This document shows, piece after piece, positions 4,748 to 37,825 of a DNA stretch of 38,095 nt. Numbering within the stretch: position 1 is the first letter of the stretch; every line of letters begins with the position of its first letter. The notes beneath the pieces were generated by a model. The model was given only the letters and a program-made list of their open reading frames with translations. It did not search any database and was not told where the DNA came from. A program made the translations under genes and the position numbers. This DNA is from a virus (lineage: Duplodnaviria; Heunggongvirae; Uroviricota; Caudoviricetes): the IMG/VR virus record IMGVR_UViG_2526164613_000026; one strand, 5' to 3'.

Positions 4748-5812
4748 CTATAATCCTCTCTGAAAAGCAGTGCTGGATGGGATATCCTGCGCACCGCGCG
4801 CTTCGCACATCATATCCATGTACCACGCCTGGCCCCTTGTGTCGCCAGTGTACATAATCCCGCGCACAATATAAACGCCATCCGTTGCGATGCTGGCAGG
4901 CTGCGATGTGGTGCCGCTTAGCGTGATATTTCCATCCGTGTTCTGGTCGGTGATCTGACCACCAGCCATCGCGATATCGTTGTTCGACAACGCGGTACGA
5001 TACACTGAAGCCTGATCCAGTTGAATGAGCCCGTTAACCCGGATGTTCGGATTAATAAGCGCGCGGACATTTACGCCGTTGCCGATGGTCTGCTGCGGCA
5101 TGCCAATAAGCCCGGTAGCGCTGTTGAGCACAATCGCTTTGTGAACATATTCATTATTCTCCACCATCTGGCGTTGACCGTCCACGAATTGCCATGTTGC
5201 GCCACATTGACCGGCTACGTTATCCATAAGATGCCGCGTCATGCCAAAGAGTACCCGCCCCCGGGGGAATACAGTAGCAGGCATTTCAGGCGTCAGGCCT
5301 TCGGTCGCGCCTTTGGCTTCGAAGTCTTTCATCAGCGCACGGTTCACATCAGCGACCGTGTAACCGGCAGCCAGCGTCTGTGAGGTTATACTGGTGGCAA
5401 AAGCCAGATCAGTATCTGCTGCCTGAATCAGGACGTAGGAATCAACCGGACTGTCTTTTCCTGTGACCGAGTAGCGAATTTCACCGCTGAAAATCAGTCC
5501 GTAGTTGCGACCATCACTCTGGCCCACGTCCGCCGCGTCAACTTCCCGCACTGTCCCGACGTCGCTTGCCGACACCTCCGGCGCGATACCGTCGTAACCC
5601 GCAATCAGACGCACTTTCGAAAACTCCTGCCCGGTAATTCGGTTCACAGTATCTGCCGAAAGGTTATAAATTTTGATAGTCCCTACCCGGGACGCGCTGC
5701 TGATGTTGAACCAGTCGATCGTAAAGGTGACTTTGAAATCACTTAGCTCAATTCCCTGACCGTTCCCGTCCACAAGCTGCAGCTCGAAATGTCTCATCCA
5801 GTTCTGTGACAT
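4748..5812 (-). CDS. Baseplate hub-like tail protein (position of Mu gp44 / P2 gpD)
   Basis: 354 aa, ATG verified at 5812. Assignment by size and synteny, downstream of the tape measure and upstream of the V-like spike. Confidence 0.55.
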   Translation of the reverse strand: MSQNWMRHFELQLVDGNGQGIELSDFKVTFTIDWFNISSASRVGTIKIYNLSADTVNRITGQEFSKVRLIAGYDGIAPEVSASDVGTVREVDAADVGQSDGRNYGLIFSGEIRYSVTGKDSPVDSYVLIQAADTDLAFATSITSQTLAAGYTVADVNRALMKDFEAKGATEGLTPEMPATVFPRGRVLFGMTRHLMDNVAGQCGATWQFVDGQRQMVENNEYVHKAIVLNSATGLIGMPQQTIGNGVNVRALINPNIRVNGLIQLDQASVYRTALSNNDIAMAGGQITDQNTDGNITLSGTTSQPASIATDGVYIVRGIMYTGDTRGQAWYMDMMCEARGAQDIPSSTAFQRGL

Positions 5813-5814
5813 GC

Positions 5815-6117
5815 TTATTCCGTTGATACCAGTAAATGACTGCGCCCGCCCAAGTCTGTTTTCGTGGGATAATCCTGTGTGCTGTCATCGCAGACCACCA
5901 ACAGCTTAAAACCAAGTCCCATACAGGCGTACTGCGCCAGCAGATCAGCGCCAGTGACGAGAGGAATACCGGAGATTACCGGCTCCCCTCTGTCATTCTG
6001 CAGGTCCATAATCCAGTAAAGATCGCGCCATATGATGCTAATTCGCCAGGTGACACCACCCAGGACGATGCTGAACTGCTGGTTGTCCGCTGTCAGCGGA
6101 ATTTCCTGAATTGTCAT
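5815..6117 (-). CDS. Tail/baseplate protein, 100 aa
   Basis: ATG at 6117 with ATGA overlap to upstream gene. Conserved position after tape measure. Confidence 0.5.
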   Translation of the reverse strand: MTIQEIPLTADNQQFSIVLGGVTWRISIIWRDLYWIMDLQNDRGEPVISGIPLVTGADLLAQYACMGLGFKLLVVCDDSTQDYPTKTDLGGRSHLLVSTE

Positions 6118-20074: not shown

Positions 20075-20599
20075 TTACCGGGACTGTTCTATTTGTCGGA
20101 CACCAGCCAACTGGTTATTCGCCTTCTCGATGGCTGCCAACAGTGGGTTAATCCACAGAACAGCCTGGCAATATGTCAACGTTCTGGTGGTAGTGGCACG
20201 ATCACCGGCTGAGTCAATGTCCCCGGAATCGGCGTGCAATGCGCTGGCGCGTAAACGGTTCGCGTAGTTGAGCAACCCGACAGCAATATCAACAGGAACA
20301 GGGAAATCACAGTTCTTTTCACGGAGCAGAACCTCACGGTATTTGATGACTGTCTTCTCGTGACCGATGTCGACCAGAGAATTTAATCGGCTTGCGTTTT
20401 CTGCTATCTGGTTAAAACGATTGAAGTTTAATGCCTGATTAGCTATCACTTTCCCTTGATATTCAGCTTCACCTTCCGCTTTATCAGCCCGCAACTTTTC
20501 TGCCTGATACTTGCTGTGGTAATGGTTTGCAGACCAGACGAGCGCCCCAAAGGCAGAGAAGAAAAATGCCGCGATGACAATCTTATAAGTCAGCTTCAT
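20075..20599 (-). CDS. Rz: Rz-like i-spanin
   Basis: 174 aa, ATG at 20599. N-terminal signal-anchor (IVIAAFFFSAFGALVWSANHYH), coiled-coil-like periplasmic part, directly after endolysin. Confidence 0.8.
   Translation of the reverse strand: MKLTYKIVIAAFFFSAFGALVWSANHYHSKYQAEKLRADKAEGEAEYQGKVIANQALNFNRFNQIAENASRLNSLVDIGHEKTVIKYREVLLREKNCDFPVPVDIAVGLLNYANRLRASALHADSGDIDSAGDRATTTRTLTYCQAVLWINPLLAAIEKANNQLAGVRQIEQSR
20176..20322 (-). CDS. Rz1: Rz1-like o-spanin lipoprotein embedded in Rz (+1 frame)
   Basis: Hand-translated 48 aa: MKRTVISLFLLILLSGC-STTRTVYAPAHCTPIPGTLTQPVIVPLPPER. GTG start at 20322 with GAGG upstream, lipobox LLSGC, proline-rich C-terminus. Absent from ORF track (GTG start, under 60 aa). 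Confidence 0.6.
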   Translation of the reverse strand: MKRTVISLFLLILLSGCSTTRTVYAPAHCTPIPGTLTQPVIVPLPPER

Positions 20600-21059
20600 T
20601 TACCATCCCACCAGCATCTTTAAACCTGGAAATCAGGTCACCGATTTTATGTTCATACTGACCGTAACCTGCACCAGGTAACGACGCCCAGATATTGCTG
20701 CAACGGTCGATTGCCTGACGAATATCGCCACGGTCAATCATCGGTAAAGCGCCACGCTCTTTAATCTGCTGCAGCGCCACAGCGTCCTGACTTTCTGGCG
20801 AAAAATCTTTCAGGCCAAGCTGCTTGCGGTAGGCATCCCACCAGCGTGAAAGAAGCTGATACCGGCCTGCGGCTGTTGATTTAAGCTTCGGGTTTAGCGT
20901 GACAAGTTTGCGAGGGTGATCGGAGTAATCAGTGAACAACTCACCTCCGACGATAACGTCATAACCGTGATTACGTGTCGGTTGTCGCCCGTTATCCGTT
21001 CCTTCTGACCATGCCACCATATCCAGGAAAGCTTTGCGTTGGGAATTTAGTGTCTGCAT
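20583..21059 (-). CDS. R: Endolysin, lambda R-type lytic transglycosylase
   Basis: 158 aa, near-identical over most of its length to lambda R as recalled (NSQRKAFLDMVAWSEGTDNGRQ...DRGDIRQAIDRCSNIWASLPGAGYGQ). Confidence 0.9.
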   Translation of the reverse strand: MQTLNSQRKAFLDMVAWSEGTDNGRQPTRNHGYDVIVGGELFTDYSDHPRKLVTLNPKLKSTAAGRYQLLSRWWDAYRKQLGLKDFSPESQDAVALQQIKERGALPMIDRGDIRQAIDRCSNIWASLPGAGYGQYEHKIGDLISRFKDAGGMVNEADL

Positions 21060-21062
21060 GAA

Positions 21063-21404
21063 TTACTCCTTAGAGCCACCAAACTTGTTACCGATTACTC
21101 GCATTGCAGCCCCACGAATAGCATCGACACCGATCAGCCCAACACCACCACCAATGGCAACAGAAAGAGATTTAGGCCATCCAACATACTCAAGAGCGGA
21201 TGCAAAGGTCAGCGTCAGAGCACCACAGAGCAAAATCTCAAGCGTTTTTCGTTTCCAGCCGCCGCCACCGCCAAAATAGGCAATGCGCAAGCCAGCCATA
21301 ACAATTGACATAACCACTGCGCCCAACGGCGTATCTCCACGCCACCAACTTTGTAAGAGTTCCAGTAAGTCAGGCCAGGAATGAGGAGCATTGTGCATTT
21401 TCAT
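21063..21404 (-). CDS. Holin, class I-like with dual-start motif
   Basis: ORF track starts at ATG 21422 (119 aa). GGAGGTG sits before the ATG at 21404 (MKMHNAPHSW, 113 aa), with a further ATG at 21398. Three hydrophobic segments. Immediately upstream of R. Confidence 0.75.
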   Translation of the reverse strand: MKMHNAPHSWPDLLELLQSWWRGDTPLGAVVMSIVMAGLRIAYFGGGGGWKRKTLEILLCGALTLTFASALEYVGWPKSLSVAIGGGVGLIGVDAIRGAAMRVIGNKFGGSKE

Positions 21405-21503
21405 ACTTCCCACCTCCGCCATTACGGGGTGTTGTTGAAAGGCGGGCCCTGCGTATACGCCCGTAGGATTGGGTTATGAGCCGTCCTTCGGTGGGCCCTG
21501 AAT

Positions 21504-21527
21504 ACAAAAAAGTTCGCCATAGCGAAC
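21504..21527 (-). terminator. Intrinsic terminator about 80 nt upstream of holin (tR'-like position)
   Basis: Minus-strand RNA GUUCGC-UAUG-GCGAAC (6-bp stem) followed by UUUUUUGUAUU. Confidence 0.6.
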
Positions 21528-21753
21528 CTTGTTAAATTTGTTAAAAAGGAAGTTATTTAACATAATGTACGTTATAGGAACCACACGATCCCCGCTCGCA
21601 ATAGATTTGCGATGAAAGGCCTATTTAATCAACTTAAGTGGTCCAGAATGACGAAATTCGAGTGAATAAAAGGTGCATAAAAAAGGGCAAAAACTGCATA
21701 GCGTTTTTTCGCAGCGAAAGCCCTGTTTTATTAACTTTTCCCCAGAATGGGGC

Positions 21754-21780
21754 AATAAAAAAGGCCCCCTTGCGGAAGCC
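21754..21780 (-). terminator. Intrinsic terminator downstream of Q and the 113-aa gene, strand-specific
   Basis: Minus-strand RNA GGCUUCC-GCAA-GGGGGCC (7 pairs including two G-U) followed by UUUUUUAUU. The same helix on the plus-strand transcript would need C-A mispairs. Confidence 0.6.
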
Positions 21781-21847
21781 TCTTCGTGATGAACTGTTTT
21801 CAACAGATATCAGGCTAATCGGCTTTTTGGAATTCCACAACTATTTT

Positions 21848-22189
21848 TTATCTTACCTTGATGCCTGATGCCGTCAGATGTTTACGACAGTCCTGAATAC
21901 CTTCGTTATAACCCGCATCGTAGAAGCTATCCGGCTTTGCCTTCAGCGCAGGAAGCGTAACGCTGGTAGCTCTTCGTTCGGCCAGAACACCTGCCTGAAA
22001 GAGTGTCCACATCAACTGAACTGCTGAATCACAGTAAGTAACATCTTCACTGTACAATTCTCGTTCAATCCTGATGCCAAGTTGAGCCTTCATTGATGCG
22101 CCAATATTACCTTTGACCTGCAACGACAGGTCTGGGTACCTCTGTTCCATGAAGCTTTCAAATCTGTTGCGAACGCTGATCAGAGCCAT
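21848..22189 (-). CDS. Hypothetical protein, 113 aa, between Q and the late/lysis region
   Basis: ATG at 22189 with AAGGGAA 6 nt upstream. Only 31 nt after Q stop. No family recognised. Confidence 0.5.
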   Translation of the reverse strand: MALISVRNRFESFMEQRYPDLSLQVKGNIGASMKAQLGIRIERELYSEDVTYCDSAVQLMWTLFQAGVLAERRATSVTLPALKAKPDSFYDAGYNEGIQDCRKHLTASGIKVR

Positions 22190-22220
22190 CTGGTTCCCTT
22201 ACGTGATTGATTGCTGGATA

Positions 22221-22643
22221 TTATGCCGCCGAGCAGCTCCTACGCAAAGTCCTGATAGCCTGAGGCTTTGACTGAACCGACTGATCCATTTCGAGCACCA
22301 CATCCAGCATGGCTAAGCAACCGTCAATAAATCCCTCTGCCGCCTGAAGCCTCTTCAGAACGTGGGTGTGAGATACGCCGAGCTTCTCACCCATCGCCCG
22401 CACGGGCATGGCCTGGACGTAATGCCACTCAAGGAGCGTGCACAGATACGGATCTTTTTTCTTCAGGCAGCTCATAGCGGAGTTGATGATAAGACCGTCA
22501 TTGTCACTGCATTTCAGCCTTCCAGACTGCGTCGCGGGTAGCAGATTCTTAAACCCGGCTGCAACAGGAGGAAAGTAGACGCTACCACCTTCACTCGCTG
22601 CCCAGCCACCCCAGCGCTCTAAAACCTGTTGAATATTACGCAT
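22221..22643 (-). CDS. Late-gene antiterminator Q (QuuD-like family)
   Basis: 140 aa, ATG at 22643. N-terminus MRNIQQVLERWGGWAA and overall pattern resemble DLP12 QuuD as recalled. Sits immediately upstream of the late region. Confidence 0.75.
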   Translation of the reverse strand: MRNIQQVLERWGGWAASEGGSVYFPPVAAGFKNLLPATQSGRLKCSDNDGLIINSAMSCLKKKDPYLCTLLEWHYVQAMPVRAMGEKLGVSHTHVLKRLQAAEGFIDGCLAMLDVVLEMDQSVQSKPQAIRTLRRSCSAA

Positions 22644-22774
22644 GGCTCTGACCTCTACGTTTTGCTACGAAAAAATTTTCTGAGAACTACGTCTGTTTAT
22701 CCGTGGGTGTGGATAACGCAGTTCCGATTCGCATATTGCATGTATCAACATGCAAAAAGTTGCTAATGCGGAGT

Positions 22775-22962
22775 GGAACCACCTGCCCCCACCTGGAACC
22801 ACCTTTTCCTAACCTTTCCCTCAATCGACTTATATATATATATGGGGTTTCTAGTAGAAAGGCGGTTCCAGTGGTTCCAGTGGTTCCGCCCCGCTTGCCA
22901 CAAGGTCTGCAAGGTGGAACCACCTTCTCTTTTAGGTGGTTCCGCGTGGTTCCAGCGGTTCC
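22775..22962. repeat. Iteron cluster, putative replication origin
   Basis: Nine GGAACC/GGTTCC hexamers counted by hand (consensus about AGGTGGTTCCA): three in one orientation at 22775, 22795, 22916 and six inverted at 22864, 22873, 22882, 22938, 22948, 22957. They flank a (TA)n tract TATATATATATAT at 22831..22843 and overlap the primase-helicase 3' end. Confidence 0.65.
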
Positions 22963-25118
22963 CAAACCTTGCATTTTTTCCCCCCAATTCGCCTTTGGGC
23001 ACGCTTATACCCGCAATTTTGCAAAACATTACTAATTCGCATTTCTTCGCGTTTTCCGATGCGGTCAGGATTTAGCCCAATCGCATCACGCAAAACATCA
23101 CTTGCGCGTAAAAATTCGCAATTTCGCGGAAGTTCATTAGTCATCAGGTCTGGCGTGTCGAGCCATTTCTCTACCGTTTCAAGCCAAGCATCCTTGATGG
23201 TGTACTGTTCATGGACACTCGCTGCCAGTTGTTCAGCCTCACGGAACTGGATACCCCCCAGACGCTGAAACACCTCACGAGCCTCAGCCCAAAGTAAAAG
23301 GAGATCTCTTTTTATCACTTTCACGTCGACTTTCGACACTTCCACGGGGAGCCAGCGACGGTTACCAGTCTTGTCCGCAAGGAATTCGTCCTCATTGGTG
23401 GTACCAACGAACACCAAGCGACGAGGAAACTGGGTGGCGAACTCCCGGTATTTCGGGATCCAGTTTTCGTGAGTACGCGTCACAAACGCTTTGATTGACT
23501 CCAGCTCTTTGGTATTAAGTCCGCGCAGTTCACCAATCTCTGCCACCAGCCGACCACGCATTTTTCGAGCGAGATCATCGTCTTTTTCGGCAAAAGAGAT
23601 TTCAGTAAAAAACGCAGGATCAGGGCTCAGTGCCTCCACTCCGGAAGACTTACCGCAGCCCTGCGGACCAACGAGGATCGGCACCATATCCGCTTTGATG
23701 CCTGGCTCCAGTACTCGCCCCGCCAACGCGGTCCACATGTACATAGACACCGCACGGGTATAAGGCGTGTCGGCTGTACCGAAGTGCGTATGGTAGAAAC
23801 ATTCGATGCGCGGCACGCCATCCCACTCCAGCCCGTTCAGCCAGGTGATCGCTGAATCGAATGGTTGTTCATCGGCTGCAAGTAACACCACATCGCGAAT
23901 AAGTTCACGACCAACAGGTTTAAATCCCCGCTTTTCCATCGTGATGCGCAGGCGCGCATAATCCGCATCGGTGAATGCCCGCCATTGTCCGGATCCTGCA
24001 GGGGCAAACATGATTTCGTCGCGGAACTGGTCAAAGCGAATATCGATGTCCACAAAATCAGGGCGTACTACTGCTTTGGCTGCGTTGCTGATGGTTGCCT
24101 CGATACGCCCCCATTTATCACGCTCGAAAGCAGGCAGCGGTAAAGGTTCCGCCACTTCGGTGCTGGTCAGATCTTCGAAATCGTCGTTGCGGATCCCGAT
24201 GGCATTAAGGAAATCTCCGTCATCACGATGCGCACAACTGGCATGCAGGCATTTAAAATGCCCCTGCTCAAAGCCCGCGGTTCCCGCAGGAAAATAAGCT
24301 GTGCTTGTTGGATCGCCCCCGCTACTGTGGCCGTCTTCAAACGGACAGCGGATATATCGTTCACCATTTGCGCCATCCAGCAGCGTCCAGCCATTGGCAT
24401 CAAGATATTCAGCTGTATCATCCGTCGCGCCGGGCGTGAATGCTGATCGGTCGCGCATCTTCGTGTTGCCCGCTTCGGTGGTTACCGACACAGGGAGTTG
24501 TTCAGCCAGGCGCTGCCACAGCGTTTCAAGCTGCTCACCAGTAATAGCCGGAGGTTCATCCGGCAAACCACCGTCCCATTCAATACGCGCGCCGCTGCTG
24601 TGCGTACCACAGGCAACGAACTGCTGCCCGTTCGCCAGCAACTCGATAATGCCCATATCCCCCGCCAGGCGATGGATACGCTTACGGAAATCACCATCAA
24701 CGGCCAGCAGATACAGACACTTATTACTGTTTGCTCGCCAGCGTCGCGGCGGCAACTCCCCCAGAAGTTGCACAAGCGTTTTGCGAATATCTGCCTGAAT
24801 GTCTTCATCTTCGCTATCGCAGTCCAGCGCCAGCCAGCCATGGCCTGTACGCACGCAGATGCCATAATCCGGTTCATTCGACCAGCGGGCAAAATCATGC
24901 TCAGTAGCAACATACCCGGTCCATTGAGCAATACCGGTGACCTGGCGGTCCCGGTTATAGCGACTTGGCGTCTTACCCAGCGCTTTCAGTTTACTATCAG
25001 GGGATATAGTCGCACCGGGGTTACATACAACTGGGAGAAGATGATCAGTTCTCCCCAATACCAGGTCGAAATGAAACCACTCATCAGGCGTAGCTCCCCA
25101 TGGTTTGCTATCGGACAT
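22932..25118 (-). CDS. Replicative primase-helicase (PrimPol-like N-terminus plus VirE-type P-loop C-terminus, P4 alpha-like architecture)
   Basis: 728 aa, ATG at 25118, 3 nt after Cro-like stop. Walker A ILVGPQGCGKSS and Walker B-like RLVFVGTTNE in the C-terminal half. Last codons are encoded by the iteron repeats. Confidence 0.8.
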   Translation of the reverse strand: MSDSKPWGATPDEWFHFDLVLGRTDHLLPVVCNPGATISPDSKLKALGKTPSRYNRDRQVTGIAQWTGYVATEHDFARWSNEPDYGICVRTGHGWLALDCDSEDEDIQADIRKTLVQLLGELPPRRWRANSNKCLYLLAVDGDFRKRIHRLAGDMGIIELLANGQQFVACGTHSSGARIEWDGGLPDEPPAITGEQLETLWQRLAEQLPVSVTTEAGNTKMRDRSAFTPGATDDTAEYLDANGWTLLDGANGERYIRCPFEDGHSSGGDPTSTAYFPAGTAGFEQGHFKCLHASCAHRDDGDFLNAIGIRNDDFEDLTSTEVAEPLPLPAFERDKWGRIEATISNAAKAVVRPDFVDIDIRFDQFRDEIMFAPAGSGQWRAFTDADYARLRITMEKRGFKPVGRELIRDVVLLAADEQPFDSAITWLNGLEWDGVPRIECFYHTHFGTADTPYTRAVSMYMWTALAGRVLEPGIKADMVPILVGPQGCGKSSGVEALSPDPAFFTEISFAEKDDDLARKMRGRLVAEIGELRGLNTKELESIKAFVTRTHENWIPKYREFATQFPRRLVFVGTTNEDEFLADKTGNRRWLPVEVSKVDVKVIKRDLLLLWAEAREVFQRLGGIQFREAEQLAASVHEQYTIKDAWLETVEKWLDTPDLMTNELPRNCEFLRASDVLRDAIGLNPDRIGKREEMRISNVLQNCGYKRAQRRIGGKKCKVWEPLEPRGTT

Positions 25119-36029: not shown

Positions 36030-36226
36030 GCGAGAAACCCGACGATTTACTCACCCCGGATGAAGTATGCCAAAAGTTAGGTATTACACAGAAAACGCTA
36101 TGTGAGTGGAATATTAAGCATCGTCATCGGGCTATCCTGGCACCAATTCGTTTCAGTGCAAAAGTAGTTCGTTATGAGCGCCGAAATGTCGACGCTTTTA
36201 TTCAAAAATGTCGCAGCCAGTATTAA
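36026..36226 (+). CDS. AlpA/Xis-like excisionase or small HTH regulator
   Basis: 66 aa, ATG overlaps helicase stop. Pattern LLTPDEVCQKLGITQKTLCEW is typical of AlpA-family HTH proteins. Converges on the integrase gene. Confidence 0.65.
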   Translation: MSEKPDDLLTPDEVCQKLGITQKTLCEWNIKHRHRAILAPIRFSAKVVRYERRNVDAFIQKCRSQY

Positions 36227-37620
36227 CCTCGCCGCCGTAGCAATGCCACCTGCGCAAGTATGCTCCGCTCGTGAGCCTCGAAAGCTTCGCGCTTCAACGC
36301 AATCTCTTCCTGTAAAATCTCATCAGAAAAGTCGTAATGTTCTGCCATCGGGTCATCTGACTTGCTGGAGTGGTGAAGGCAAAGGAGGCTGATTTCCCTT
36401 CGGTCTGAGCGGGAATAGCCTCTTTCCTTCATCAAGGCAATAACATTGCTCTTAAGGAATTTACGGCACATCGTATTAAATGCACCGTCTTTCCCTTTAA
36501 CAGTTCCATCATGTTTTATTCCTTTTACAGCCCCGTCCGGGCTGTATGTTTTCACCAGCTTATCCAGTGATCGTTTTGAAAATGGCTGCATTGGATCACG
36601 TGGCTGCAAAAATACATAATCCCTGTTGCACTCAGGAACTGAATCACGCCAGGCTTTCTGCTCGTCGATAATCCGCCGGATCTCAGGCGTTATCGGCAGG
36701 CGGAAAGCCTTTTGTGTTTTCATAGCCCCTCGCATGCCGATAACCCCTTCCGGATAAACAATTTCACCAGCCTCCTCGTGAACGTAGTCCCAGCGCAGGT
36801 TATGGACATTAATCGGACGAACACCAGTGATGATCATGAAGCGAACAGCATTCTTCTGGTGTACAGAGGTGCAGGCAGCAACATTGAGCCAGAGTCGGGC
36901 GATTGATTCAATATCGGTAAAAAGCCGTGTGGGGGTAGGTTTCTGTACGCGGGAGGAAACATAATCATCTGGCAGACTGGCGGCAACATTGCGGCCGTTG
37001 CAAAGAGTAGGTGCGCAGAACTTCCAGAACCGACGGAGCTCGGCAAACAACTCCAGGGCGTTATTGTTCGAGCGAGTGGCGATCCACTCGTCCAGCACTT
37101 CCACCAGCCGACTGTATGTTACGTCGCTGAACACCTCGCGCTCGCCGAACGTTGATTTAATCCGGTCGATACGCACCCCATAGGTTGTGAAACTGTCCGG
37201 GCTCAGCTTCTGACGGGCTACTTTGGCTTTGAGGTCATCCCGGTACATTTCCAGCGCTGCATGTACGGACTCTGCCCGCAGTCCACCGTCAGCCATACCT
37301 AGTGCTTTTTCGCGCGCCAGCTGGATAGCGAGCTCCGGCCACTCGCCGAGCTTTTTACCTTTGAGGCCCATCTTTTTTGGAAACTCGGCGTAAAATGTAA
37401 CCTTACCGGCTTTGCTGAAATCGATACGGAGATAGTTCTCTTTTTCGTATTTGGAACGGCGAGCCACGCCGGAAGCAGCGAGGATGATTTTGGCGGCAGC
37501 AACACAGATTTTCATGTGTGCGCTGGTATAGGGGGGTTTACAGGCGTCCCATTTTTCAGAAGCGGCTAAAACATCGTCATTATTGGGGCTATCCGGATTA
37601 TGTGTTACAGTGCGCGGCAT
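36223..37620 (-). CDS. int: Tyrosine integrase
   Basis: ORF track starts at TTG 37626; ATG at 37620 has AAGGA 7 nt upstream (465 aa). Recombinase-like motifs (MIITGVRP, C-terminal LCLHHSSK...EHYDF). Terminal position next to a host gene. Confidence 0.8.
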   Translation of the reverse strand: MPRTVTHNPDSPNNDDVLAASEKWDACKPPYTSAHMKICVAAAKIILAASGVARRSKYEKENYLRIDFSKAGKVTFYAEFPKKMGLKGKKLGEWPELAIQLAREKALGMADGGLRAESVHAALEMYRDDLKAKVARQKLSPDSFTTYGVRIDRIKSTFGEREVFSDVTYSRLVEVLDEWIATRSNNNALELFAELRRFWKFCAPTLCNGRNVAASLPDDYVSSRVQKPTPTRLFTDIESIARLWLNVAACTSVHQKNAVRFMIITGVRPINVHNLRWDYVHEEAGEIVYPEGVIGMRGAMKTQKAFRLPITPEIRRIIDEQKAWRDSVPECNRDYVFLQPRDPMQPFSKRSLDKLVKTYSPDGAVKGIKHDGTVKGKDGAFNTMCRKFLKSNVIALMKERGYSRSDRREISLLCLHHSSKSDDPMAEHYDFSDEILQEEIALKREAFEAHERSILAQVALLRRRG

Positions 37621-37825
37621 TCTCAATCCTTATCTGCGTAGGCGCAGAAAACAAGCTCACACATACAAGTCTTTTCTACGGGACAAAATGCAATGTGTTG
37701 CGGTTTTGTGTTGCTGGACTGAGTTTATCAAGGTTAAATACACTGGATCAACATACAGTAAGTTAATGACAATAAAGCATACAAACTCGATACAACTTAC
37801 TGATTTTAAAATAATTTAACGGTAA

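Follow-up and report, generated by a model that had tools for sequence, protein, structure and literature searches.

What drives late transcription in a temperate phage whose Q antiterminator and holin genes are separated by two tandem terminators, and what is the DNA between these terminators for? The question is raised by IMG/VR virus record IMGVR_UViG_2526164613_000026 (Caudoviricetes), a stretch of 38,095 nucleotides that was analysed as a whole and is called the window here. The late strand of the window is the minus strand, and along this strand the order is Q, a 113-amino acid (aa) open reading frame (ORF), a 425-bp region, holin, endolysin, a Rz-like gene, the small and large terminase subunits, and portal. 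An earlier note on this DNA had described the 425-bp region as a late control region, and had placed the late promoter and the Q-utilisation site (qut) between the two terminators, by analogy with the pR'-qut-6S-tR' arrangement of phage lambda. From sequence features, conservation, covariation and homology we arrived at a different reading, which we consider probable: the Q-holin spacer combines a late switch of the Q21/Q933W type, with the late promoter pR' upstream of the first terminator (T1), and a psi/cer-like site for the XerCD recombinases between T1 and the second terminator (T2). The proposed parts of the switch are as follows.

22221..22643, minus strand: Q antiterminator gene, 140 aa, Q21/Q933W family (Pfam PF06530, E 5e-42; PHROG 79).
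21849-21844, minus strand: A-tract.
21840-21825, minus strand: 16-bp near-palindrome TTGTGGAATTCCAAAA, which holds the -35 hexamer TTGTGG; candidate Q-binding element.
21812..21817, minus strand: -10 hexamer TAGCCT, after a 17-bp spacer; aligns with TATCAT of the pR' promoter of phage Sp5.
21803..21807, minus strand: predicted transcription start at ~21805, by homology to Sp5.
21793..21806, minus strand: small inverted repeat CTGTT-GAA-AACAG, with the -10-like AACAGT at 21798-21793; candidate sigma-dependent pause element.
21757..21785, minus strand: terminator T1, at ~+21 to +49 of the predicted late transcript.
21740..21752, minus strand: inverted repeat CCCCA-TTC-TGGGG, seen directly in the sequence.
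21506..21530, minus strand: terminator T2, 24 nt past the XerD arm of the recombination site described below, with its 3' end ~300 nt from the predicted start.

The earlier note had seen two leftward intrinsic terminators on the late strand, and both were found at the places claimed. In T1 the stem GGCTTCC (21780-21774), the loop GCAA and the stem GGGGGCC (21769-21763) are followed by six T residues (21762-21757); by RNAfold the helix extends to 21785-21758, with a free energy of -17.1 kcal/mol (z -2.49), and none of 200 shuffled sequences was as stable. In T2 the stem GTTCGC (21527-21522), the loop TATG and the stem GCGAAC (21517-21512) precede six T residues (21511-21506), and the fold of -11.5 kcal/mol (z -3.35) was equalled by 1 of 200 shuffles. 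A plain consensus terminator scan of the region was not above chance (4 sites where 2.4 were expected), and on the late strand it returned T2 only; hence, the real support for the terminators comes from the relatives. In the IAI1 type the T1 stem differs (AGCTCCAA/TTGGGGCT) at an unchanged position, and four different T2 stems were found among relatives, again with the position and the downstream sequence unchanged. Judged by folding and by these compensatory stem changes, both terminators are real. The inverted repeat CCCCA-N3-TGGGG, which had also been reported, is present at 21752-21740; it is kept in relatives of the same genome layout (layout B, see below), with a compensatory CCCG...CGGG in L153, and is absent in IAI1.

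The position of the Q site can be deduced from phages that carry divergent Q genes. The Q proteins of the prophages in IAI1 and RMDEC465 are 45% and 29% identical to that of the window, and the putative recognition helices of these proteins differ. The stretch from the T1 U-tract to holin is 96-99% identical across the window, IAI1 and RMDEC465 types, that is, across three Q types; upstream of T1 the sequence differs from one Q allele to the next, and the mosaic joint lies inside T1. Specificity for the cognate qut site is a property of known Q proteins. Given this specificity and the constancy of the T1-to-holin stretch, qut is expected in the variable part upstream of T1.

A promoter motif was then drawn from 80 viral contigs with related Q genes, among which 23 distinct loci had a common layout: an A-tract (AAAAA), TTGTG(G/T), 16-18 bp, TAnnnT, 7 nt and then, usually, a small inverted repeat. 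The -10 was TAnnnT in 23/23 loci, and exceptions at the -35 (TTTACG or TAGTGC) were confined to two. In 19 of the 23 loci a strong terminator lies shortly downstream of the motif, the hairpin beginning ~25-60 nt past the -10. Counted from the Q stop codon, the start of the -35 ranges between -37 and +380, i.e., it lies inside the last codons of Q, just past Q or, as in the window, past an inserted ORF; since its position is independent of the Q stop, the motif is conserved as DNA and not as protein-coding sequence. The small inverted repeat was found at the same position in every related locus with differing sequences (GTGG..CCAC, GTGA..TCAC, TAGAAT..ATTCTA). In the window, AACAGT occupies ~+8 to +13, with A at position 2 and T at position 6, and relatives have TACATT, TACTTT or TAGAAT at +4 to +12. 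From these comparisons, the late promoter and the Q-loading site most likely lie at 21849-21793, upstream of T1. Genes past T1 in other Q loci were considered as an indicator of the promoter and discarded, because this mix of morons and lysis genes was not decisive.

The near-palindrome over the -35 varies among these loci, and its variants stay symmetric (GGAATTCC, GTAATTAC, GTGCGCAC and ACGATCGT). They track the putative recognition helix of Q: GGAATTCC was paired with a helix ending ...SHT.(V/I)LKR in 13/13 loci, and GTAATTAC or GTAATGAC with ...SHN in 5/5, which makes 18/18 cases in all, although linkage could give the same pattern. It is likely, on this covariation, that the 16-bp palindrome is an allele-specific Q-binding element.

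The start position was taken from the Stx2a phage Sp5 (Stx, Shiga toxin), for which a published study places the pR' start, mapped by dRNA-seq, and the RNA 3' end, mapped by Term-seq, 258 nt apart (Sy et al., PMC7547250). From this distance the Sp5 start was placed in the E. coli Sakai sequence at L005:1046, the seventh base past TATCAT. The placement was confirmed by the RNase E site GU|AUU, given at +173 in the same study (PMC7547250), which lands exactly on L005:1217-1221. The Sp5 start is upstream of a strong hairpin and U-tract at +24 to ~+51, so that the order in Sp5 is that predicted for the window: promoter, first terminator, ~200 nt, second terminator. This hairpin (L005:1069-1097, GAACCCGC-CGATG-GCGGGTT plus seven T residues) lies inside the StxS leader, and no mention of it was found in the text of the StxS paper that was searched (PMC7547250).

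The switch of the window can be compared with three known systems. With the pR'-tR' region of Sp5/933W it shares the Q family (PF06530; the Q proteins of the window and of 933W/Sp5-type Stx phages are 42% identical) and a homologous promoter layout with AAAAAATAGTT, a palindromic -35, TAnnnT and GATA. In both, a strong hairpin followed by a U-tract comes first, at ~+21 to +51, and another terminator stands 250-300 nt away from the start. The window differs from Sp5 in that its promoter follows the inserted 113-aa ORF, whereas that of Sp5 overlaps the Q stop, in its weaker hexamers, in the DNA between the terminators, which is unrelated and in Sp5 has no Xer core, and in the absence of tRNA or toxin genes downstream. 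With lambda it shares Q, a terminator and lysis genes and, as predicted for the window, a constitutive late promoter, a promoter-proximal pause element and a short terminated RNA in lysogens. Unlike lambda, the window has a Q of another family, a candidate Q site that is a palindrome over the -35, and two terminators, the first ~50 nt from the start, and the ~230-nt spacing lies downstream of this first terminator. With phage 21 Q and pR'21 (structures 6P18 and 6JNX) the likeness consists of the Pfam family as named by Yin et al., a faint sequence similarity (E 0.13), and a Q site within the promoter, upstream of the start, which in the window is a candidate. The Q21 site, however, is formed by two direct TGAGCA repeats at ~-25 to -12, and the candidate of the window is a symmetric 16-bp element at ~-36 to -21. 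The name Q21/Q933W family is taken from bioRxiv 10.1101/651190.

The DNA between T1 and T2 contains a different kind of element, on the strands indicated.

21583..21745, minus strand: conserved accessory-like region of ~170 bp on the XerC side of the core (alignment A4).
21555..21582, minus strand: 28-bp XerCD core GGTTCCTATAA-CGTACA-TTATGTTAAAT, with the XerC arm at 21582-21572, the centre at 21571-21566 and the XerD arm at 21565-21555.
21538..21566, plus strand: antisense sigma-70-like promoter TTGTTA-17-CATAAT, which shares bases with the XerD arm and is directed into the accessory region.

The XerD arm of the core is identical at 11/11 positions to that of E. coli dif, which is GGTGCGCATAA-TGTATA-TTATGTTAAAT (PMC2731167), and no second site of this kind was found in the 38-kb window, where the core is internal. 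A similar element of ~215 bp was found by a pattern scan in at least 120 viral contigs. In a logo of 78 distinct elements the XerD arm is invariant, the XerC arm reads (G/A)GTGC(G/C)N(G/A)TAA and the 6-bp centre is variable; the invariance of the XerD arm is in part forced by the procedure used to locate the core, and alignment A4, which was built without reference to the core, was equally invariant. Published rules for Xer sites are that the XerD arm shows higher conservation than the XerC arm, that the inner bases are palindromic and that the 6-bp centre varies (PMC11724359); the logo obeys these rules. Here, two 11-bp arms lie within the usual 6-8 bp of each other, the XerD arm is the better conserved one, and the inner 5 bp are near-palindromic. 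One phage carries the variant GGTGCGCGCAA-CGTCCA-TTATGTTAAAT, which differs from psi of plasmid pSC101 at 4/28 positions. Furthermore, relatives of type B and psi have in common TGTGGCGAGTG exactly 10 bp before the core (TGTGGCGAGTG-N10-core), where the window has TATTGCGAGCG. As a side observation, near-identical elements of the window type (L006-L019, e.g., L009, L013, L017 and L018) often differ in the centre (CGTACA, CATACA, CGCACA), and a 4-nt deletion shortens the core of L017.

The known sites cer and psi are flanked on the XerC side by accessory sequences of ~180-200 bp, to which PepA binds together with ArgR or ArcA (PMC5357621, PMC11724359). In all members of the phage family ~170 bp are conserved on this same side. 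The region carries three direct repeats, CTATGCA (21701-21695), TTATGCAC (21680-21673) and TTATTCAC (21669-21662), spaced 21 and 11 bp apart; at -119, -98 and -87 from the core, they occupy roughly the position of the ArgR box of cer. Aligned globally with psi and cer, the accessory region gave no significant match except the core-proximal TGTGGCGAGTG in common with psi; nor can psi and cer be aligned with each other. RNAalifold, run on 29 sense and 26 antisense members of the family, returned neither a consensus structure nor covariation for either strand, which argues that the element acts as DNA. From these comparisons, the T1-T2 interval looks like a psi/cer-like Xer site and not like a 6S-like leader.

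The resemblance to psi (pSC101) and cer (ColE1) thus covers the 11-bp arms, a centre of 6 bp as in psi and an XerC-side flank of ~170-180 bp and, for psi, an exact copy of its XerC arm in some phage elements. The differences are that the host replicon is a tailed, integrating temperate phage, that the site lies in a late-operon leader between two terminators, that three direct repeats take the place of a clear ArgR or ArcA box, and that some relatives have two sites. The attP sites of integrative mobile elements exploiting Xer (IMEX), such as those of the CTX, VGJ and TLC phages and of the gonococcal island, are dif-like sites on a mobile element that the host XerCD recognises, as is predicted for the site of the window. 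These elements, however, integrate at dif and have no integrase of their own, whereas the window prophage has a single internal Xer site and its own tyrosine integrase at 36223-37626, at the prophage end.

Two candidates in this interval were rejected. TATAAC-N6-TATGTT (21576-21559), which resembles a lambda-style -10 with its pause element, consists of the inner XerC arm, the centre and the XerD arm. A cos or pac site was set aside because the element is not consistently beside terminase genes, and because truncated contigs break off within it at scattered points. DnaA boxes, an rrn-type boxA (TTTAACAA), an ARG box and a tRNA-fMet-like CUCAUAACCC loop were also noticed by eye, and were too poorly conserved or too poorly matched to be claimed.

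Blocks of the T1-T2 interval recur in other phages, and mosaic copies of the element occur within the family. The element is always co-oriented with the flanking genes and heads late or morphogenesis genes, in three layouts.

Layout A: primase, a 91-aa helix-turn-helix protein, element, structural genes; without Q.
Layout B (the window): Q, pR', T1, element, late genes.
Layout C: a small terminase-like gene, element, large terminase.

In layout-A phages (L089, L092, L107, L124 and L162) the stop codon of the gene for the 91-aa protein (PHROG 16553, labelled repressor) abuts the Xer-type element. Only a generic regulator annotation was found for this protein, which may be the late regulator of the Q-less phages. 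In layout-C phage L096 two direct Xer cores are present, at 1589-1616 and 5802-5829, and likewise in L103, L105, L109, L112, L114 and others; the centres differ (CGACCA vs GAACCC), and the second core is preceded by a sequence of its own, with a terminator after the core. A terminator also lies 3' of the core in YP3. Because a terminator follows the core in these places too, T2 may be as much part of the Xer module as of the Q switch. The same core lies between repA and a toxin-antitoxin pair (relE/higB toxin) on non-mobilisable E. coli plasmids of 47-49 kb (e.g., L209, 47 kb) that resemble the circular Yersinia phage vB_YpM_39, and the circular 76.9-kb Enterobacter plasmid pE76_003 (L210) carries a window-type phage with regulator, primase, Q, element, holin and lysozyme. 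The DNA just past the XerD arm is a cargo hotspot, with a higBA pair that has its own promoter and a sialyltransferase-like gene among the insertions (L088:2501-2620, L094 downstream of the element, and L107); in L107, hairpins past the XerD arm suggest reverse-oriented cargo.

We propose that the two parts would work as follows. Directly past the 113-aa ORF, a weak pR' (A-tract, -35 TTGTGG, 17 bp, -10 TAGCCT) would start transcription near 21805, and the -10-like AACAGT at ~+8 to +13 would hold the sigma-bound RNA polymerase long enough for Q to be loaded. In a lysogen, where Q is missing, pR' transcripts would end at T1 after ~49 nt and the few that escape would end at T2 after ~300 nt, so that the lethal holin would stay off. 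A short terminated RNA, which the earlier note had also implied, is therefore expected in lysogens, as a ~49-nt species (pR' to T1) with a minor ~300-nt one ending at T2. Upon induction, Q made from the early operon would modify the polymerase at pR', and the modified polymerase would read through T1, the interval and T2 into the holin, endolysin, Rz and terminase genes. For the Xer site, the most likely use is that host XerCD, with PepA and a second accessory factor, would resolve dimers of the circular phage genome, which would be of importance during replication of the genome or its persistence as a plasmid; because of T1, transcription from pR' would not reach the site before the late phase.

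Several observations weigh against this proposal. The main caveat is that pR' of the window is poor relative to the consensus, with 3/6 matches in each hexamer, and was missed by the promoter scan. The initial transcribed region is unlike the GTGGTTAC... of most relatives, which makes the pause element a guess. In the window only ~500 bp separate the Q helix from the palindrome, and ~100 bp in relatives that lack the 113-aa ORF; hence, their covariation could stem from common descent and linkage. The sites bound by Q21 are direct repeats located between the -35 and the -10, and not a palindrome over the -35 (PMC6606751), and the palindrome would therefore be a subfamily variant. On the recombination side, the XerC arm of the window matches dif at only 8/11 positions, and by eye the direct repeats match neither the ArgR box (cer box TGCATAGGTATTCA) nor the ArcA consensus. 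The prophage is integrated and has its own integrase, so that a need for dimer resolution is not obvious, and simple dimer resolution does not account for the layout-C phages, in which two direct cores ~3.9 kb apart flank TerL, portal and a 250-aa head gene.

Other explanations were weighed against the same data. In the first, T1 would end only the early Q transcript, the late promoter and qut would lie between T1 and T2, as the earlier note had it (21530-21750), and a 6S-like RNA of ~200 nt would end at T2, the sole Q-dependent terminator. The direct succession of Q and T1 in IAI1 and RMDEC465 implies that T1 must also end early transcripts, and TATAAC and TATGTT lie 12 nt apart, like the -10 and the pause element of lambda. 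The main point in its favour is that layout-A phages, which have no Q, must start or antiterminate late transcription somewhere near the element; in the loci inspected this was the only non-coding stretch seen between early and late genes, so that a late promoter may lie in it. However, no late-strand sigma-70-like site was found between T1 and T2, the two hexamers belong to the Xer core, three divergent Q types have an unchanged interval in spite of Q-qut specificity, and the homologous Sp5 start maps upstream of the first hairpin. We consider this arrangement very improbable; the promoter and qut are better placed at the Sp5-homologous motif upstream of T1, and the ~230-nt spacing, which had been likened to pR'-qut-6S-tR', is accounted for by the psi/cer-like site. 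It is just as improbable, in our judgement, that the interval mainly yields a regulatory small RNA, either the leader from pR' to T2, processed in the manner of StxS, or an antisense transcript that starts from TTGTTA-17-CATAAT (plus strand, start near 21573), like Rcd of ColE1 cer. The Sp5 pR'-to-tR' leader is an Hfq-binding small RNA (PMC7547250), an A/U-rich stretch precedes T2, and the antisense site, the only promoter-like match in 20500-23000, is kept as TTGTTA-18-CATAAT in 62/110 family members. It is loosely analogous to the internal Pcer promoter from which cer encodes Rcd (PMC4393325). Yet its -10 is inherent to the XerD arm and so comes automatically with it, the plus strand has no clear terminator, the StxS region shows no evident likeness by eye and has no Xer core, and neither the Rfam search nor the structure analysis of either strand returned support for such an RNA.

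Finally, the Xer-like element could serve something other than dimer resolution: a joint for the exchange of genome modules between phages (cf. the Acinetobacter pdif modules), a region for packaging or for the binding of other proteins that only resembles dif, or an inert remnant carried with the late module. It marks the early/late junction in three genome layouts, morons are inserted directly past it, two direct cores flank TerL, portal and the head gene in layout-C phages, and mosaic copies occur within the family. On the other hand, in 78 distinct copies the 11-bp XerD arm is invariant and the 6-bp centre is not, which would not be so in an inert remnant, flanks of the accessory type normally restrict Xer to intramolecular resolution, and the lack of a consistent association with terminase genes does not favour packaging. 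This group of explanations appears improbable to us, and a psi/cer-like site behind a Q21/Q933W-type switch is the reading that we retain.

A broader version of the retained reading can be formulated, which we regard as speculative and on balance unlikely. Psi/cer-like XerCD sites would be a regular part of the late-operon leader of tailed temperate enterobacterial phages, and their position would be functional: as long as the late promoter is terminated at T1 the site would be untranscribed, and XerCD/PepA would keep circular genomes monomeric for lysogenisation or plasmid-like carriage, and Q-dependent read-through could disrupt the recombination complex and so yield multimers or concatemers for packaging. 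In addition or instead, the sites could be joints at which phages exchange whole early or late modules, or the terminase-portal block that two sites flank in layout-C phages.

The remainder of the locus is as follows.

21848..22189, minus strand: 113-aa accessory ORF, inserted between Q and the late promoter.
21405..21505, minus strand: holin leader with a conserved block and a long-range pair of GGGCCC (21498-21493) with GGGCCC (21449-21444).
21063..21404, minus strand: lambda-family holin with a Met-Lys-Met dual start (Pfam PF05106; 342 nt in the annotation of relatives), followed by the endolysin, the Rz-like gene and the terminase small subunit.

The 113-aa ORF gave no match in a Pfam search, and its PHROG matches are families of unknown function. 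Only an out-of-frame remnant of it, left by a deletion from ATGG to AAGG, is present in phage 606R2 and in strain KKa019, from which we conclude that the ORF is dispensable. ORFs with an N-terminal sequence like that of the 113-aa ORF, as judged by eye, follow Q in L020, L021 and L023. T2 lies before the holin gene as the earlier note had proposed, at a distance given there as about 80 nt; the holin start, which had been set at 21422, is most likely at 21404 (ATG AAA ATG) according to the annotation of relatives. Beyond T2 the holin leader is kept in relatives despite their differing T2 stems, and its long-range pair is there GGGCTC...GAGCCC, a compensatory change. The leader also holds CUCAUAACCC, which resembles the anticodon loop of the initiator tRNA. 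No tRNA was found by ARAGORN, and a search of Rfam gave nothing at the gathering score and only weak terminator-like matches by E-value.

The octamer GGAACCAC, which the earlier note had listed here as a lone copy of an origin iteron, is indeed present once (21577-21584, plus strand), overlapping the outer five bases of the XerC arm and three flanking bases. Most relatives read GGCACCAC or GCGCACCA at this site, so that the match with the iteron is probably coincidental. In the whole window the octamer occurs 9 times where 0.95 are expected; seven copies, on both strands, lie at 22775-22953, between the primase gene and Q and partly over the 3' end of the primase gene, and this cluster is probably an iteron origin.

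The rest of the window encodes a CI-like repressor, a VapE-type primase and a family A DNA polymerase, and together with the integrase the repressor and replication genes identify an integrated temperate phage. DNA near-identical to the Q-holin region is found in many complete E. coli genomes (the region is present in 145/5426) and in induced phages such as vB_EcoM-606R2.

The Q switch described here is a further member of known Q-dependent late control. For annotation, it means that the late promoter of a widespread prophage group belongs ahead of both terminators. A palindrome over the -35 appears to serve the Q933W subfamily as its allele-specific Q site, and the natural T/N helix variants with GG..CC or GT..AC palindromes bear on Q specificity and are relevant to Shiga-toxin expression; for Stx phages, the comparison also reveals that the Sp5 leader contains, at +24 to ~+51, a strong terminator-like hairpin. 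In the literature search, which was incomplete in coverage and may have missed an earlier description, no account of psi/cer-like sites in the late leader of tailed integrating phages was found. If our reading is true, a host-Xer site with a plasmid-type accessory sequence in tailed-phage late operons would extend the exploitation of Xer beyond plasmids and filamentous phages, and its presence in a late operon would link the control of recombination to late transcription.

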